A stretch of DNA of 22,223 nt from an uncultured virus (IMG/VR IMGVR_UViG_3300036770_004547) (lineage: Duplodnaviria > Heunggongvirae > Uroviricota > Caudoviricetes). The notes beneath the pieces are model-generated. The model was not told the DNA's origin. It saw nothing but the letters and a program-made list of their open reading frames with translations, and did no database searches. The translations under genes and the position numbers were made by a program. The stretch lies in IMG/VR virus record IMGVR_UViG_3300036770_004547; one strand, written 5' to 3'. This document shows positions 4,361 to 20,663 of the stretch, in pieces (the first letter of the stretch is position 1; every line of letters starts with the position of its first letter).

Positions 4361-5989
4361 ATGAGCATCCTGTCAGACCGCGAAATCAAAGAACTTTCAA
4401 TCGAGAAGGGTATGATCCAGCCCTTCCAGGATCGACTCATCAATGAAAGCAACGGCCGTAAATTGTTGAGCTATGGTCTTAGTTCTTACGGGTATGACAT
4501 TCGCTTGTCGCCTAAACAATGCTTGATCTTTGGGCGTACCCAGTCTGGTGATTGTGATCCCAAGGATTTTGATCAGAATATCCTGCGTCCGGCTGAATTA
4601 CTGGAAGATGAAAAAGGCCAATACTTTCTCCTTCCTCCTTTTGGTTACTGCCTTGGTGTTGCAGAAGAATATTTAGATCTTCCCAAGGACGTTACCGTGG
4701 TTGCCGTTGGGAAAAGTACGTATGCCCGATCGGGAATTTTGGTAAATATTACGCCTGCGGAAGCCTGTATGGCGGACGATACTGATATTCTTGCAAAGAC
4801 AGGGTGGAAAAAACTCAAGGATGTGATTATTGGGGAAGAAGTTTTAACTCTTAATCCCATTACAAAAGAAGCTGAATACAAACCTGTTCAAAAAAAACAA
4901 GCACATTATTACAATGGAAAACTGCTTCATTTCCACGGAAAGTATGTAGATCAACTTGTAACGCCTGATCATAAAATGTGGGCGGCAAAACGACTTGTTC
5001 GTGTTGAAGCAGAAGGAAATGGCTGGGCTAACAAACAAAAAGGTGTTCGTCGCGCACAAGAAAGCCACTGGAATTTTTCATTAATGCGTGCAGACCAAGT
5101 TTATGGTGAATGGAATCATTATTTAAGTCGAGACATTAAATGGTCTGGAAAAAAGCCTGAGCCTGTAACTCAAATCGGAAAGCATGCTTTTTCAACTGAT
5201 TTTTGGCTTCGTTTTTTAGGTGCCTGGATGGGAGATGGTTCTGCTTATGACAATGGACGCGGAAATTATGTAATTAAATTAGCTGTTGTTACCAAAGTTG
5301 AAAAGCGTTTGTATTTCAGGTGGATCTTGGAAAATCTTGGCGTCAATTTCCATGAGTCTGATTATGGCTTTTCTTTCCAATCTAAAGATGTCATGGAGTA
5401 TTTACTTCCCTACAAGTACGCTAAAAACAAACATCTGCCAAATGAAGTTAAGCAGCTTGATTCAGAAAGCTTAAAACTTATTATTGACGGAATGATGCAT
5501 TCAGACGGAAACATTGAAACGTCTACTTATGTCAGTGTGTCTGAAAAATTAATCGATGATTTTCAAGAGATCTGTTTAAAAGCAGGATATAACTGCACAA
5601 AGTGGTCGCAAGAAAAACCGATCATGACTGGGGTTCCTGTAAAAATGTTTAAAGCACGTTATTCAACTGCAAATGTAACTCCTTCAAAACTTACTCCCAA
5701 TAAGAATATGTCCAGCGTTGACTACACTGGCATGGTCTACGACATCACTGTTGAAAATCACATTTTCTATTCGAGACGAAATGGACGCGCTTCTTGGACT
5801 GGAAATTGCTGGGAAGGACATTTAACCCTGGAAATCAGTAATTGCACTGGTCTGTTTAATCGCATCTATGCCAACGAAGGGATCTGTCAGCTACTATTTT
5901 TCCGTGGCAAAGAATGCGAGACCGATTATCAAATGAGAAAAGGTAAATATCAAAATCAACCCAAAGAAGTGGTCTTTAGTCAGGTCTGA
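4361..5989 (+). CDS. dcd: dCTP deaminase precursor interrupted by an intein (spliced product 195 aa)
   Basis: Reads on +; MSILSDREI, SYGLSSYGYDIRL, GKSTYARSG, ITPAEA|...|CWEGHLTLEISN, IYANEGICQLLFF and KGKYQNQ are dCTP deaminase motifs. Confidence 0.93.
   Translation: MSILSDREIKELSIEKGMIQPFQDRLINESNGRKLLSYGLSSYGYDIRLSPKQCLIFGRTQSGDCDPKDFDQNILRPAELLEDEKGQYFLLPPFGYCLGVAEEYLDLPKDVTVVAVGKSTYARSGILVNITPAEACMADDTDILAKTGWKKLKDVIIGEEVLTLNPITKEAEYKPVQKKQAHYYNGKLLHFHGKYVDQLVTPDHKMWAAKRLVRVEAEGNGWANKQKGVRRAQESHWNFSLMRADQVYGEWNHYLSRDIKWSGKKPEPVTQIGKHAFSTDFWLRFLGAWMGDGSAYDNGRGNYVIKLAVVTKVEKRLYFRWILENLGVNFHESDYGFSFQSKDVMEYLLPYKYAKNKHLPNEVKQLDSESLKLIIDGMMHSDGNIETSTYVSVSEKLIDDFQEICLKAGYNCTKWSQEKPIMTGVPVKMFKARYSTANVTPSKLTPNKNMSSVDYTGMVYDITVENHIFYSRRNGRASWTGNCWEGHLTLEISNCTGLFNRIYANEGICQLLFFRGKECETDYQMRKGKYQNQPKEVVFSQV
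4766..5806 (+). mobile_element. Intein with LAGLIDADG homing endonuclease (347 aa, residues 136-482)
   Basis: Block A CMADDTDILAKTGWK; block B LVTPDHKMW; LAGLIDADG-like motifs FLGAWMGDG and IIDGMMHSDG; blocks F/G VYDITVENHIFYSRRNGRASWTGN followed by +1 Cys. Confidence 0.93.
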
Positions 5990-6777: not shown

Positions 6778-7067
6778 ATGAGTGCAAGGACGGTTTTTGT
6801 CCTATGCCTGCACCAAAGCTGGTTGTTGCCAAGCCAAAGGTTGACATGGTGAATCACCCACCCCACTATGTCAACGAGAAAAAGAAAATTGAAACAATCG
6901 ACAAGATCGAAGATGCAGTTCAGTTTGCACCTGATGCAGTTCTTGGCGGCCTCCAGTGGCAAGTAATTAAGTATATTGACAGGATGTGGGATAAAGAAGA
7001 TCCTAAGAAAGATGCGAAGAAAGCAATGTGGTATTTAAAACGTCTTATTCAAAAATTAGAAGATTGA
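6630..7067 (+). CDS. DUF3310/SaV-like phage protein
   Basis: DMVNHPPHY...IETID.IE...IKY..R...K...D.KKA.WYL.RLI signature; ATG 6630 has AGGAGG 6 nt upstream; alternative start ATG 6804. Confidence 0.8.
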   Translation: MRNDGLYSECGTGNGDGSITQTQSFSAGTGGTERGGERNVDETPWFNPVDECKDGFCPMPAPKLVVAKPKVDMVNHPPHYVNEKKKIETIDKIEDAVQFAPDAVLGGLQWQVIKYIDRMWDKEDPKKDAKKAMWYLKRLIQKLED

Positions 7068-7355
7068 ATACTCTCGGTCATCATCGTCATCATCTTCTTC
7101 GTCATCCCCCTGGCACATCATTGCTAGCTCAACTAGCTCAAGCTGGGTCGGGTGATCAAATTCCAATTCAATATTTTCGTCAGCAAGAAGGTCTTTGATT
7201 GCGGCCCACTCGATTAAGCGCCGCTGGTACAGATTCAAAAGAGCAGCATACAGTTGATCCCAGGTCATCTCTTGGGCTTCCAGCTCTGCTTTACGCATTG
7301 CAAATTGCAGTTGAAGCGGGAGTTCTAATTCGCGGGGACGAACTGCGTCTTCCAT
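7056..7355 (-). CDS. nblA: NblA-like phycobilisome degradation adaptor with acidic C-terminal extension
   Basis: LPLQLQFAMRKAELEAQEMTWDQLYAALLNLYQRRLIEWAAIKDLL follows the NblA pattern LSLEQQF..R......MS.EQ....L..LY.Q.......LL as recalled. Confidence 0.7.
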   Translation of the reverse strand: MEDAVRPRELELPLQLQFAMRKAELEAQEMTWDQLYAALLNLYQRRLIEWAAIKDLLADENIELEFDHPTQLELVELAMMCQGDDEEDDDDDDREYSIF

Positions 7356-14772: not shown

Positions 14773-15042
14773 TTAGACACCCATAGCCGTGTACTGAGCC
14801 ATGCTAAAAGGCTCACTAGGCATCTTTGCGGTTGAACTGAATAAGCGTTCGGGATTAGATTGGAGATTCAAAAAAGTCTGAAACAATTCTCCAACATCTG
14901 ATTTGGGTTGGAATTTAAATTGTTTTTTCCTAATGTAATCTGAGACTTGCTGCGGGTACTGACGATATTCATCCAAGCCCGCAAATCTGGCATCACTTGG
15001 AAGATAAGAATCGGAATCAACAACTTCGGAAAACCTAGCCAT
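14773..15042 (-). CDS. Hypothetical protein (89 aa)
   Basis: TAATG overlap with the upstream gene; fills the operon gap. Confidence 0.7.
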   Translation of the reverse strand: MARFSEVVDSDSYLPSDARFAGLDEYRQYPQQVSDYIRKKQFKFQPKSDVGELFQTFLNLQSNPERLFSSTAKMPSEPFSMAQYTAMGV

Positions 15043-15707
15043 TACACGAAATCCTCCTCGTCGCCAGCTCTTAGTCGATCTAAGAAATCTTGAAGATACA
15101 CATCTGCATTCATATTAACTTCAGGTAAAAAACTTTGTTGTCTTTGAAAATTTGGAATTACTCCCATGATAGTGCGAAGTAAATTGGCGCCAAGCCTATT
15201 GCCGTCTTGAACAGGTGTTGAGGCTACAGGAGCTGCAGGACTTTCAAGCGTTACAGGTAAATCACCAAGAACACGACGAGCATTTTCATATAAATCACCA
15301 CCTTTTTTAAACCTAGGAAGAGCGCTAGATACTGAAGTACCAAAAGAATCCTTGGCTTTTAATGATACGTTTGGATTACCACCAAGAACAGTTGCATAAG
15401 CGCGATCAATACCCATTTGACCGGGTTTAAAACCACGGTCTTCAAAGTATTTTAAAACAGCGGGCATCTGCCCGGCTCTTGTTTGAGGTCCAGAAATGCC
15501 ATAAAGCTTTTGTTCGTTTTGTCCGAACTGAATCAAGCCCTTATGTCGACCGCCCGCACCACCAACAATATTGGGATCCATGTTGGGGCCTGACTCCAAG
15601 GAAAGGAATCCGCCAAACTCATAAGGATCTAAACCTAATTTTTGCGCCCCACGGAAGATGGCCATCCGCTCTTCATGGGGGAGAGTACCAACGCGTGGAG
15701 TGGGCAT
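15042..15707 (-). CDS. Lytic transglycosylase-like (SLT/lysozyme-fold) protein
   Basis: LGLDP...LSLESG..DP...GLIQF motif with catalytic Glu-Ser, and a downstream AYATVLGGNP motif. Confidence 0.7.
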   Translation of the reverse strand: MPTPRVGTLPHEERMAIFRGAQKLGLDPYEFGGFLSLESGPNMDPNIVGGAGGRHKGLIQFGQNEQKLYGISGPQTRAGQMPAVLKYFEDRGFKPGQMGIDRAYATVLGGNPNVSLKAKDSFGTSVSSALPRFKKGGDLYENARRVLGDLPVTLESPAAPVASTPVQDGNRLGANLLRTIMGVIPNFQRQQSFLPEVNMNADVYLQDFLDRLRAGDEEDFV

Positions 15708-15720
15708 AATAACTGAATTT

Positions 15721-15837
15721 TTATTCTCCTACCCAATTTGAATTTGCCTTAAGACCAGGGACGAATACTGCTTGAAGAGCCACAACTAAACTCAGTTTGG
15801 CAGTGAGACGACGAAGGAAATTACGGCAAAGAATCAT
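15721..15837 (-). CDS. 38-aa signal-peptide-like small protein
   Basis: ATG 15837: MILCRNFLRRLTAKLSLVVALQAVFVPGLKANSNWVGE has a basic n-region, hydrophobic h-region, P-G-L-K-A c-region and short polar tail. Confidence 0.55.
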   Translation of the reverse strand: MILCRNFLRRLTAKLSLVVALQAVFVPGLKANSNWVGE

Positions 15838-15838
15838 T

Positions 15839-15945
15839 GGGTTACTGCAAGAACGCTGGTCTCCGTAGATCAAATGATCTGTTACCCAGCAGGTGGACTT
15901 ACCCACAGATGTGGCGCCAAGTAACCCTAGTTTACCAAAGGGTTA
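15839..15945 (-). other. Candidate structured RNA leader of the small ORF
   Basis: Closing stem GGGUUACU/AGUAACCC; inner stems GCUGG/CCAGC, AGAUC/GAUCU and GUGG/CCAC; competing hairpin UAACCCU/AGGGUUA; TAAACT hexamer at 15934-15929. Confidence 0.5.
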
Positions 15946-16851
15946 TTTTAAGCGTCCTTCAAACGCACGTTTAAGTAACGCAAGTTGCGTTTGAGTCAGA
16001 TTCTCAGAAGAAGGAACGTCAAATCCTTTCTTGAAGACGTTCTCGCCAATCATTGAAGGAGGAGTTTGCCCTGGTGCACTGACACCAAGCTGTTGTGCAT
16101 TCGCACCCATGCCAAAGGCATTCATGTTACCAGCTTGTGCTGAACCAGGGAATTGCACTCCCCCAGGCGCACCGACTTGTTCACTGGCCTGTTGATATAT
16201 GGTTTGCGTGACACCAGGGATGTCCTTGCCGAACACTTGGGATCCTGACATCGCTGCAGATGTCTGATAACCAACTTGTCCAGGCCTTACTTGTTTTGCG
16301 AGCGTGGGGTTAGTAGTTGCCCAAATCTGAAGACCAATCCGTTCTTTATCTTCCGGACTTGCTGCATTATATGCTTTAGTTAACTCGGCTACTTGATATT
16401 TTTTAACAAGAGGATCTTGTTCTGTAAGTTGAGCAATGCGAGAACGCTCTTGCATTTCAGCGCGTTCAATAGGAGTATCAATAGATGCAAACGTAGAGGC
16501 TTGTTGACCAGGGAAACCAGCACCTGGGCGAAATTGCTCTGCTGCTTGACCTGCTGCTAATTCTTCTCTTGCATAATCAGAAGTTAATCCAGGCATGCGA
16601 GGACGTTTTGCAGTATCCAAGTTGAATCGTCTGTTACCAGCTACTGCTACTGGATTAGAGCCGACATATGGCCGTTTTTGCCCAGGAGGTGCAAATTGAT
16701 TTTCAACTGCTGTGCCAAAATTTTGCAAAGCAGTAACAATATTATCTTTTGGATTTAAAATGCTTTGTACTCTTGGAACAATATCTGCTGCTGCGCCAAC
16801 TGCTCCTGCTAATCTTCCTAACAAAGCTGGTGCTGAAATATAACCAGGCAT
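15943..16851 (-). CDS. Hypothetical A/G/Q/P-rich protein, possibly an internal virion protein (302 aa)
   Basis: Long ORF in the structural block, starting 2 nt after the upstream stop. Confidence 0.75.
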   Translation of the reverse strand: MPGYISAPALLGRLAGAVGAAADIVPRVQSILNPKDNIVTALQNFGTAVENQFAPPGQKRPYVGSNPVAVAGNRRFNLDTAKRPRMPGLTSDYAREELAAGQAAEQFRPGAGFPGQQASTFASIDTPIERAEMQERSRIAQLTEQDPLVKKYQVAELTKAYNAASPEDKERIGLQIWATTNPTLAKQVRPGQVGYQTSAAMSGSQVFGKDIPGVTQTIYQQASEQVGAPGGVQFPGSAQAGNMNAFGMGANAQQLGVSAPGQTPPSMIGENVFKKGFDVPSSENLTQTQLALLKRAFEGRLK

Positions 16852-18622: not shown

Positions 18623-19417
18623 TCAGCTAACAACGCGACCCAGGAGGTAGCCATCAATATCTTCGTAGCCAGGGGCTTCATCTGGTTGGATGTAGCACAC
18701 TTCAACAACGAAGTAGCCAGTGCGGCCAGCAGCTTTATCTGCAGAAGAGATGTACCAACCTGCATCAATACCGCTGGTAACGGTGGAAGCAGTACGCGAG
18801 AACACTTTATAAGTGGCAGCGCTGGTCAGTTCCTTGTAGACGTTAGTGGCGGTGACACCAGCGGCGCCGGTAGCAGTCAGGAAAGGATTGGTGCTATAAG
18901 CAGCGGATCCACCAGCGAAGAAGATTTCGCCTTCTTGGCTACCGGAAACAGTGCTGGCGAGGTTGGCCTGAGCAACACCTTCACCAACGGCTGCGCTAGA
19001 AGCAAGGCCAGTAGCAAACGAGATCACGCGACCAGTGGTAGCATACACACCGGAAGCAACGCGGCCATCGCCCCAGCCGGAAGCAACGGAGATGGTAGCG
19101 CGATAAACGTAAGCAGGAAGGGTGCTGGAGCCACTGATCACCATGCCGGTGATGTCAGTACGGGTGTCATCGTTCCGGTAAGGGGAAGGAACAATAACGT
19201 TGCCCGACGAAACGGCACCATCGCCAGAAGCAGTGGTGACGGGCACATAGCCACGCTGTTGGAAATAACGATAGCCAGGAGTTGCCAACACCGAAGTGGG
19301 GCCGCCTTTCGAACCATCATTAGCACCGCTGTCATCGGTATCAATGTTTTTGTACCAACCGTTCAGCGGCTCTGCCCAGTTACCAGGGTAGATTTTTTTA
19401 GACGAGAGATAGGTCAT
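18623..19417 (-). CDS. Putative capsid decoration/minor structural protein (264 aa)
   Basis: Immediately downstream of the capsid gene; GGAG SD; highly expressed codon bias; A/G/S/T-rich. Confidence 0.7.
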   Translation of the reverse strand: MTYLSSKKIYPGNWAEPLNGWYKNIDTDDSGANDGSKGGPTSVLATPGYRYFQQRGYVPVTTASGDGAVSSGNVIVPSPYRNDDTRTDITGMVISGSSTLPAYVYRATISVASGWGDGRVASGVYATTGRVISFATGLASSAAVGEGVAQANLASTVSGSQEGEIFFAGGSAAYSTNPFLTATGAAGVTATNVYKELTSAATYKVFSRTASTVTSGIDAGWYISSADKAAGRTGYFVVEVCYIQPDEAPGYEDIDGYLLGRVVS

Positions 19418-19453
19418 TTATTTCTCCGTATGGTTTACTTATGTTTTTACTTA

Positions 19454-20617
19454 TCAGACGCTACCGTCATCGGAGACGAAGCTGTAAGCAGTGGTGATGA
19501 AGTCTTTGTTCAGGACTTCGAAACCAGCATACAGTTGCCAGATGAGGATGATGAAACGGCTGAAGTCGTCGTTGTTGTTGATCAGCACCTGAGCATTCGG
19601 GCCACCGATACCAACGCCAACGGCTTGAGGACCGAAGAAGAAACCTTGAGCAACTTCTTGGGCGCTGTACGAAGCAACGTCGGTGAAAGAAGCTTGAACA
19701 GTTTTGGAGGGGAAGTTGGTCGACTCGAAGAACTTCACACCTTCAAACTGAACACCAGTCGGCATAACGGGTTCACCAGCCAGGAAGTAAGCCTGACCAG
19801 CTTGGGGACCCATGTAGAAGCTGGCGTTGTTAGGCATCATGGGGTTACCCATGTACATGCCTTGACCAGGGTTGCCGCTGTAACGAGCGATCTCACGGAA
19901 GTCAGGATCACGACGCAGGTGCATCATGAAGGTGGGATCGCAAATGCAACGATACAGACCATCGGTGAAGGTCGGCACGTTACGCTTACGCATATCCTTG
20001 ACGACGGTCAGCAAGTCGGTACGAACCGAGAACTGCTGGATGTCGGCAGTGTATTGAGCAGCGGTGTAAGCAATTTGACCAGAAGAGTTTTTGGTCTTAC
20101 CACCAGGGAAGTAGTAACCACCTTGGCTGGTAGAAGCAGCACCATTGGCTTCAGCTTTGGCAAGTTCGTCAATGAAGACGCGGTCACGCCAACGGCGATA
20201 GTCGTCAAGCAGGGTCAAGCTGCCGATCGACTGGTGGAACATATTCAGGTTGCCGGTGTCCAGAAGCAGACGCTGGGCGGTAACCAGAGTTTCGCGAGCA
20301 ATCTTGAAGGTCGAAGGCTGAGTCGGATCGCCCGGGTCAGCAGGACCGGTGTATTCCTTAAGCACCACCAGGACTTTCTCCTTGGTGATGTTACGGCTGT
20401 TAGCAGTACCAATAGTCTGGTCAGCAATGCGCTCACGGCTGTCCTTAGTACCAGGGGTACCCCAGAACTTATAGCGGTCGAGCTGAACGGTTTGACCAGG
20501 TTGACGAGTGAAGTCGTGAACAACAACAGGCTCTACGGCCATTTCGCAGATGTACGCCGGGTGGGGGCGATACAGTTCTGCACCCAAAATCTTGGGGAAA
20601 TCGGTATCAAGAAACAC
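19454..20617 (-). CDS. Major capsid protein (N4-gp56-like, HK97 fold; 387 aa)
   Basis: GTG start with GGAGG SD; PGQTVQLDRY, VLKEY, CICDP, GVQFEGVKFFESTN, FFGPQAVG and DDFSR...W..YAGFEVLN motifs; strong codon bias; TGA TAA double stop. Confidence 0.85.
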   Translation of the reverse strand: MFLDTDFPKILGAELYRPHPAYICEMAVEPVVVHDFTRQPGQTVQLDRYKFWGTPGTKDSRERIADQTIGTANSRNITKEKVLVVLKEYTGPADPGDPTQPSTFKIARETLVTAQRLLLDTGNLNMFHQSIGSLTLLDDYRRWRDRVFIDELAKAEANGAASTSQGGYYFPGGKTKNSSGQIAYTAAQYTADIQQFSVRTDLLTVVKDMRKRNVPTFTDGLYRCICDPTFMMHLRRDPDFREIARYSGNPGQGMYMGNPMMPNNASFYMGPQAGQAYFLAGEPVMPTGVQFEGVKFFESTNFPSKTVQASFTDVASYSAQEVAQGFFFGPQAVGVGIGGPNAQVLINNNDDFSRFIILIWQLYAGFEVLNKDFITTAYSFVSDDGSV

Positions 20618-20663
20618 TTTAGTTTATCCTCCAGTACGCAGGACTTTGTCGGGTGAAAGATTC

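Follow-up and report, generated by a model that had tools for sequence, protein, structure and literature searches.

A signal-peptide-shaped leader ORF, conserved in S-EIV1-like cyanophages with exchangeable peptidoglycan hydrolases locked in its +1 frame, as a probable case of +1 recoding

The stretch of DNA analysed here, referred to as the window, comprises 22,223 nucleotides of an uncultured virus (IMG/VR IMGVR_UViG_3300036770_004547), which by its sequence is an S-EIV1-like cyanophage. An ORF of 38 aa (15837-15721, ATG start, TAA stop), named the leader, separates a 302-aa gene, gene U below, from the gene of a 221-aa enzyme; a major head protein gene belongs to the same block. The leader is 92% identical to an unannotated stretch of the Synechococcus phage S-EIV1. 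The locus is laid out as follows.

15943..16851, minus strand: gene U, 302 aa, low complexity, no family match
15847..15918, minus strand: two-hairpin RNA-like element ending CCRG-YGY-YNYYGC, 9-11 nt before the leader ATG
15721..15837, minus strand: 38-codon leader ORF; residues 1-33, putative Sec-type signal peptide; residues 34-36, Asn-Trp-Val, running into the shift site; residues after 36, non-shifted tail
15729..15738, minus strand: putative +1 shift site, AAY TGG GTA R
15708..15728, minus strand: linker of 7 codons, open in the +1 (hydrolase) frame, from just after a TAG to the hydrolase ATG
15042..15707, minus strand: enzyme with lytic-transglycosylase fold (about residues 1-150, plus a C-terminal tail) and its own ATG

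Some neighbouring features were recorded on the way. A 656-codon open frame (18686-20656, plus strand), antisense to the major capsid gene and the next gene, is probably a shadow frame. At the position of that capsid gene, as deduced from synteny, S-EIV1 has a 383-aa plus-strand ORF (L447:20859-22010), annotated merely as a shorter piece plus an opposite-strand ORF. The dCTP deaminase of the window (4361-5989, plus strand) is 542 aa long versus 195 aa in S-EIV1, and Pfam DCD matches it in two stretches; the insert, bounded by Cys...Asn-Cys, is one that we take to be intein-like.

An earlier reading of this DNA, made from the sequence only, had described the leader as shaped like a secreted-peptide precursor, and both its shape and its conservation support a signal peptide. 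It has a basic N-region, a Kyte-Doolittle maximum of 2.41 over 11 residues and a short tail, and its modelled helix spans residues 2-25 (mean pLDDT 71). A crude signal-peptide rule was passed by one of the 52 ATG ORFs of 30-45 aa in the window, the leader itself, and by 6 of 7704 ORFs in 100 shuffles, a control that is lenient because the rule was drawn up with the leader in view. Conservation accompanied by many synonymous changes, which are abundant in codons 1-32, is stronger evidence than this rule. Pfam, PHROGs and NCBIfam gave no family for the 38-mer, and a search of the ESM Atlas with it returned unnamed clusters only, under 0.9. Two other kinds of signal were discarded, a Tat signal, Arg5 being Pro in 101 of 171 sequences, and a lipoprotein signal, Cys4 being without a lipobox and missing from the overprinted clade described below.

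In motif-led scans, relatives of the leader were encoded by 359 of 382 pattern matches among viral sequences and by 435 of 531 among metagenomes; these scans are biased to the tail motif, and 80 viral and 80 metagenome loci were fetched from them. Three locus searches were run without the leader as query. With the enzyme as anchor, 41 of 43 loci had the whole leader ORF and the other two contigs start too late. With a flanking 153-aa gene as anchor, the leader was present in 70 of 80 loci, the other 10 ending less than 1500 nt past the anchor. A distant homologue of this flanking gene gave 58 new loci with a leader out of 69; two were cut inside the leader, seven were too short, and two (L448, L497) are truly without it, a leaderless enzyme directly following gene U. 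Pooling yielded 281 distinct contexts from 497 of 515 loci; these contexts are related to one another, so that all counts over them overstate independence. On this comparison the leader is a real, signal-peptide-shaped ORF, conserved in S-EIV1-like cyanophages. One match came from a prokaryote genome, a Bacteroidota metagenome bin in which the cassette lies on a 5.9-kb contig (L365); this contig is probably phage DNA binned in error.

The enzyme model has a lysozyme-like fold, with a phage lytic transglycosidase, 9udh, as top Foldseek match (E 3.7e-5), and the sequence resembles internal virion and tape-measure proteins. Clustering of 211 complete enzymes gave eight sequence families, most pairs of which have no detectable similarity: a lambda-R-like family, that of the window, PF18013, PF01464, three related families with at most weak cell-wall-hydrolase matches, and an unassigned one. 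The families interchange while leader and frame stay. The last 55 residues (15042-15200 in the window, minus strand) are common to unrelated families, with up to 100% identity, which means that catalytic cassettes are exchanged with a constant leader in front and a common tail behind; this tail is possibly a capsid-packaging or ejection tag. A W-x-x-x-N-P-x-L motif recurs in gene U products, including that of the window, and at the N-terminus of some lambda-R-like enzymes (L052, L080). No holin family match was obtained with 30 window ORFs and 116 S-EIV1 ORFs. S-EIV1 has other candidate lysins (glucosaminidase plus C39, and PF00959), so that lysis need not depend on the leader-linked enzyme, an exported form of which may be auxiliary. 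Next to the PF00959 lysozyme of the window lies a 99-aa ORF (7056-7355, minus strand) with a weak NblA match (E 0.0074, below the curated cut-off).

The leader is out of frame with the transglycosylase, as had been noticed from the window, and the offset itself turned out to be conserved: the hydrolase is always +1 relative to the leader. Counted from the base after GTW-R, the +1 frame has no stop for at least 150 codons in 251 contexts out of 281; in 28 it stays open as far as the end of the contig, and in two (L045, L459) it is closed. Frames 0 and +2 never reached 150 codons. In the two closed cases leader and linker are intact, and the hydrolase is broken by a frame change within the catalytic domain, which is an assembly error or marks a pseudogene. 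Linker length ranges from 4 to about 54 codons among relatives. When the enzyme start was chosen regardless of frame in the 251 contexts, its distance from the Trp codon took 15 values, from 19 to 169 nt, and was 1 mod 3 in all 251; a spacing of 28 nt occurred in 125.

Stop codons are avoided in the linkers. In the clade of the window, where the leader is free-standing, none of 91 linkers had a stop in the enzyme frame versus 20.1 expected from shuffles, nor had any of 38 dissimilar ones (8.6 expected). In a second, overprinted clade, the 3' end of gene U overlaps both leader and linker, and the linkers, about 50 codons long, have a median nucleotide identity of 0.62 (minimum 0.49). For 42 of them, T was found at none of the 268 synonymous gene U sites where it would stop the enzyme frame, versus 394 of 956 (41%) safe synonymous sites; at equivalent would-be-stop synonymous positions in the body of gene U, T was present in 223 of 510. 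Selection thus maintains an open enzyme frame that extends well beyond the enzyme's ATG in the upstream direction and reaches back precisely to the site. Taken as a whole, these sequence patterns make it highly probable that leader and hydrolase are fused by +1 recoding. A natural in-frame fusion of the two was not found, the three matches of one search being 40-79 aa long, and when a 52-aa homologue served as query for longer forms fused in frame, a weak search, none turned up among 6 candidates.

A stand-alone small membrane protein, or a leader or arrest peptide that merely couples or regulates initiation at the hydrolase ATG, might also sit at this place. The frequent 28-nt spacing, the Shine-Dalgarno look of UAGGAG and the RNA element upstream would all suit such a role. 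Translational coupling, however, is not known to need a fixed frame; in addition, the spacing reaches 169 nt, linkers of about 50 codons are purged of stops, and UAGGAG is lost in several lineages. We give this explanation hardly any credence.

Three arrangements of leader and gene U were seen: leader and linker inside gene U (L452/L456, with the site at L452:5132), leader inside gene U, which ends just past the site (the L018-type clade), and the free-standing leader of the window clade. They may record the birth of the leader by overprinting and its later separation, and the module may have arisen by overprinting on the neighbouring virion gene. In the overprinted clade an enzyme ATG or GTG overlaps or closely follows the gene U stop. 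An internal start is thereby retained, from which a short form of the enzyme is probably also made, and this position together with the two leaderless relatives indicates that the leaderless enzyme is viable.

In 199 of 200 distinct upstream regions, a CYGG/CCRG stem with YGY-YNYYGC after it precedes the leader ATG by 9-11 nt. This motif is kept inside the gene U coding sequence in 42 of 42 overprinted regions, where synonymous codons are frozen. An alignment of 29 free-clade sequences shows two hairpins, with pairing in 95.9% of cells, a figure favoured by deriving the structure from the alignment that scores it and by leaving out 5 of 34 representatives whose first hairpin is different or absent. 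Both partners vary in seven of the 10 pairs, and neither shuffles nor slid registers approach these values. The element of the window alone folds no better than shuffles (z 0.05), the support coming from covariation only. When the motif was scanned for under relaxed settings, 8 matches appeared in the window, only one of them exact, versus 1.65 expected. Rfam gave no match at gathering score in the window, only two weak matches on the wrong strand, and none in L015; no promoter- or terminator-like site was found in the 15707-15943 gap. Upstream of three leaders (L100, L370, L374) the first hairpin is swapped for a different one and the second stem is kept, one sequence among them showing a compensatory CTGA/TCAG change. 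The element is absent from L033, which keeps the frame lock. We read it, from this pattern of conservation, as a candidate initiation or regulatory element for the leader.

Nucleotide conservation at the shift site exceeds the need of the protein. Val36 is encoded by GTA in 279 of 281 contexts (171 of 171 free-clade sequences) and by GTT in 2, and all four codons are used for Val24. Codon 37 is GGA in 270 of 281, and AGA, GCA, AGT or GGG in the others. In the window a +1-frame TAG occupies 15731-15729, and the first codon read in the new frame would be 15728-15726 with Val36 in the P site, or the next one with codon 37 there. In the GTA lineages a +1-frame TAG or TAA overlaps Val36, which bars an earlier shift, and in L465/L468 a zero-frame stop right after codon 37 bars a later one. 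If one mechanism holds throughout, the P site would thus be occupied by Val36 or codon 37 at the shift; Val36 is the likelier, because it alone is invariant.

Judged by its sequence, the site is not of the prfB/PSA type. Re-pairing of the P-site tRNA from GUA to UAR would leave little pairing, the stop follows Val at a distance of 1-12 codons, and the site is without a slippery run or a conserved 3' structure, the 3' sequence not being conserved. In-frame TGG GTA is present in six other S-EIV1 ORFs and is thus insufficient for a shift; this, together with the unconserved 3' sequence, implies that a stimulator must lie 5'. Our candidate for this stimulator is the nascent peptide itself (Phe25, Pro27, Ala31, Ser33-Val36); the bases UCA AAY and AGGAG, which are near-constant, may assist. 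ARAGORN detected no tRNA in S-EIV1.

Several other devices were considered and rejected. UAGGAG is not an essential Shine-Dalgarno sequence, as it is lost in several lineages and its spacing varies from 9 to over 150 nt. A -2 slip from codon 38 is at odds with the variation of this codon, which is a stop in L465/L468. A -1 shift from gene U into the enzyme fails in the free-standing clade, where gene U has no overlap with the site. Initiation at a non-AUG codon after the +1 stop would have to use GAG, GAA, CAA, GTG, GAT or GGC, the first codons found there.

The linker might also be translated by another route, namely a short ribosomal hop, slippage at Trp with read-through of the +1-frame stop, or loss of one base from the RNA. 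Re-pairing at the site is poor, UGG-G could slip to GGG, and known bypass and +1 sites are flanked by Trp codons, as far as the accessible part of PMC5009743 tells. Against these routes, the homopolymer run required for polymerase slippage is absent, the +1-frame codon after GGG is TAG, TAA or TTA according to lineage, which argues against read-through, and the stop right after codon 37 in one lineage excludes the -2 slip. We hold them, together, to be quite improbable, and retain a +1 shift at Trp-Val.

What the leader would do for the fused enzyme can be judged from its composition. In all 125 distinct leaders, Asp and Glu are absent from residues 1-31 and the net charge of residues 1-14 is +1 to +4. 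The h-region is moderately hydrophobic (median 2.03) and more conserved than usual for signal peptides. Signal peptidase I follows the -3/-1 rule, for which Ala-x-Ser/Ala is a typical pattern. Asn-Trp-Val is preceded by Ala-x-Ser in 280 of 281 contexts and by Ala-Ser-Ala in one. By this rule cleavage is likelier after Ala31-x-Ser33 than after LKA, the site proposed in the sequence-only reading, where the -3 residue is Leu, Met, Phe or Trp. Given the fusion, a cleaved export signal appears to us more likely than not. The leader may instead be an uncleaved anchor of the SAR type, or a membrane-inserting helix on the virion-packaged form that would aid envelope crossing at DNA entry. In favour of this, the gene is surrounded by capsid genes and putative internal-virion genes, the matches of the enzyme include internal virion and tape-measure proteins, and Gln22, Phe25 and Pro27 are conserved beyond the need of an export signal. 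Against it speak the strongly basic n-region and the -3/-1 residues, which are Ala and Ser/Ala in 281 of 281 contexts while the residue between them varies; this version of the fusion seems unlikely.

The sequence-only reading had favoured a phage signalling peptide, similar to arbitrium AimP or Phr, with the tail of an exported 38-mer acting as the signal. The layout, a signal followed by a short tail, is indeed that of AimP and Phr (about 40 aa), and exactly two residues follow Val in 225 of 281 contexts. That reading had named conservation of the C-terminal residues among its checks and a variable tail among the findings that would refute it, and the tail proved variable: after Val36, 50 distinct tails of 1-12 residues were found. 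The arbitrium system needs a TPR-HTH receptor, according to the available part of PMC12472986. None had been evident in the window, and 30 window ORFs indeed gave no TPR/RRNPP-like Pfam match; the search proposed for the rest of the genome, with the complete S-EIV1 genome as stand-in for the window phage, gave none in 116 ORFs either, although a divergent receptor could escape Pfam. Integrase was likewise without a Pfam match in the 116 S-EIV1 ORFs (of at least 70 aa) and the 30 window ORFs. The leader thus differs from AimP and Phr in that a fixed mature peptide, an AimR-like receptor and an integrase were not found, and in its neighbours, gene U and the hydrolase. Signalling would also leave frame lock and stop avoidance unexplained, and we find it very improbable; by its sequence, the leader is probably not an arbitrium-like precursor. 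The leader is frame-locked to a downstream peptidoglycan hydrolase, and a lysis-related role, listed earlier as an alternative (lysis regulator), comes closer.

The recoded fusion can be assembled into the following model. Late transcripts would be read in two ways. Ribosomes initiating at the leader ATG would in part shift +1 at Trp-Val (UGG GUA/GUU R), probably aided by a nascent-peptide pause, and continue through the short linker into the peptidoglycan hydrolase. The resulting pre-protein would carry a Sec-type signal peptide, and cleavage, probably after Ala-x-Ser, would free the enzyme in the periplasm, where its likeliest use is as a lysin or wall-weakening enzyme late in infection, at release. 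Unshifted ribosomes would release the 38-aa peptide as a by-product. Initiation at the hydrolase's own ATG would give a leaderless cytoplasmic form, probably packaged in the virion for DNA entry. As a whole, a recoded fusion yielding an exported hydrolase beside a leaderless form, with the exact role left open, is in our judgement a likely account.

A bolder version can be formulated, which we put forward tentatively, giving it a little less than an even chance. A new bacterial +1 recoding signal would act as a localisation switch: a self-pausing signal peptide would drive a UGG-GUA shift without tRNA re-pairing, the upstream RNA would set translation, and Sec export would be bolted onto at least eight interchangeable virion hydrolases, so that one gene serves both entry and exit.

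If true, the model would define a new class of bacterial +1 shift site, and a new use of frameshifting, in which the destination of an enzyme is chosen via an N-terminal signal. It points to a way in which an abundant lineage of freshwater cyanophages, for which no holin match was obtained, could get a lysin to the wall, and suggests that gene callers miss such leaders. With S-EIV1 and its host available in culture and a cassette of about 250 nt, the model lends itself to direct testing.

Programmed +1 frameshifts are described for cps and tsh of the Listeria phages PSA, A118 and A500, at CCC sites (PMC5009743, accessible part), and for prfB (CUU UGA C), where the shift was shown in Synechocystis (bioRxiv 10.64898/2025.12.20.695498, accessible part). 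The cyanophage locus is like them in its short first ORF, +1 shift and two products per locus. In the sections of these sources that were available, their sites combine a slippery codon with an adjacent stop or a pseudoknot, and the phage cases extend C-termini. In contrast, at the cyanophage site the adjacent stop is dispensable and the slippery codon absent, and the shift would equip an enzyme already possessing a start of its own with a targeting signal at the N-terminus.

A closer likeness is offered by the yeast Ty3 +1 site, GCG AGU U, where little or no P-site re-pairing takes place (PMC5009743, in part). Recoding stimulated by the nascent peptide, as in T4 gene 60, the rhizobial ICE +1 site and the terminase bypass of Streptomyces phage Hau3, forms the comparison set, and a conserved Trp just upstream is common to sites influenced by the nascent peptide and to the cyanophage site (PMC5009743, PMC10732093, accessible parts). 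The latter differs from these systems in codons and organism and in its variable A-site codon (GGA, AGA, GCA, AGT, GGG), and has neither a 50-nt gap nor a matched landing codon.

With regard to the products, the proposed enzyme would be made in a long and a short form with one stop, and so are two-polypeptide endolysins, without a frameshift. The short product of the latter is a binding module, not the whole enzyme. Their genes use an internal in-frame start, long and short products having a common stop, according to the accessible part of PMC9430671. Muralytic enzymes with an N-terminal export signal, as proposed for the cyanophage fusion, include Lys44 of fOg44, with a cleaved Sec signal, and the SAR proteins P1 Lyz and phage 21 R; virion lysins can also be inner capsid proteins, ejected on opening (PMC6116005, accessible part). 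The cyanophage enzymes share with Lys44 a muralytic catalytic domain (9udh fold; PF18013, PF01464 and lambda-R-like relatives). In Lys44 and the SAR lysins, as far as that source describes them, the signal is in frame and on every copy, whereas the cyanophage signal is in the other frame; in place of a lysis cassette with holin, the cyanophage enzyme sits in a virion gene block, and a leaderless form would also be made.

In the literature searched, which included few subscription papers, no report was found of the leader, of the shift site or of any phage hydrolase that gains a signal peptide by frameshifting. Each ingredient is known singly, from +1 shifts in phage structural genes, from the prfB shift of cyanobacteria and from exported lysins, in so far as the accessible parts of the sources describe them; their combination, and the site itself, are new within that literature.
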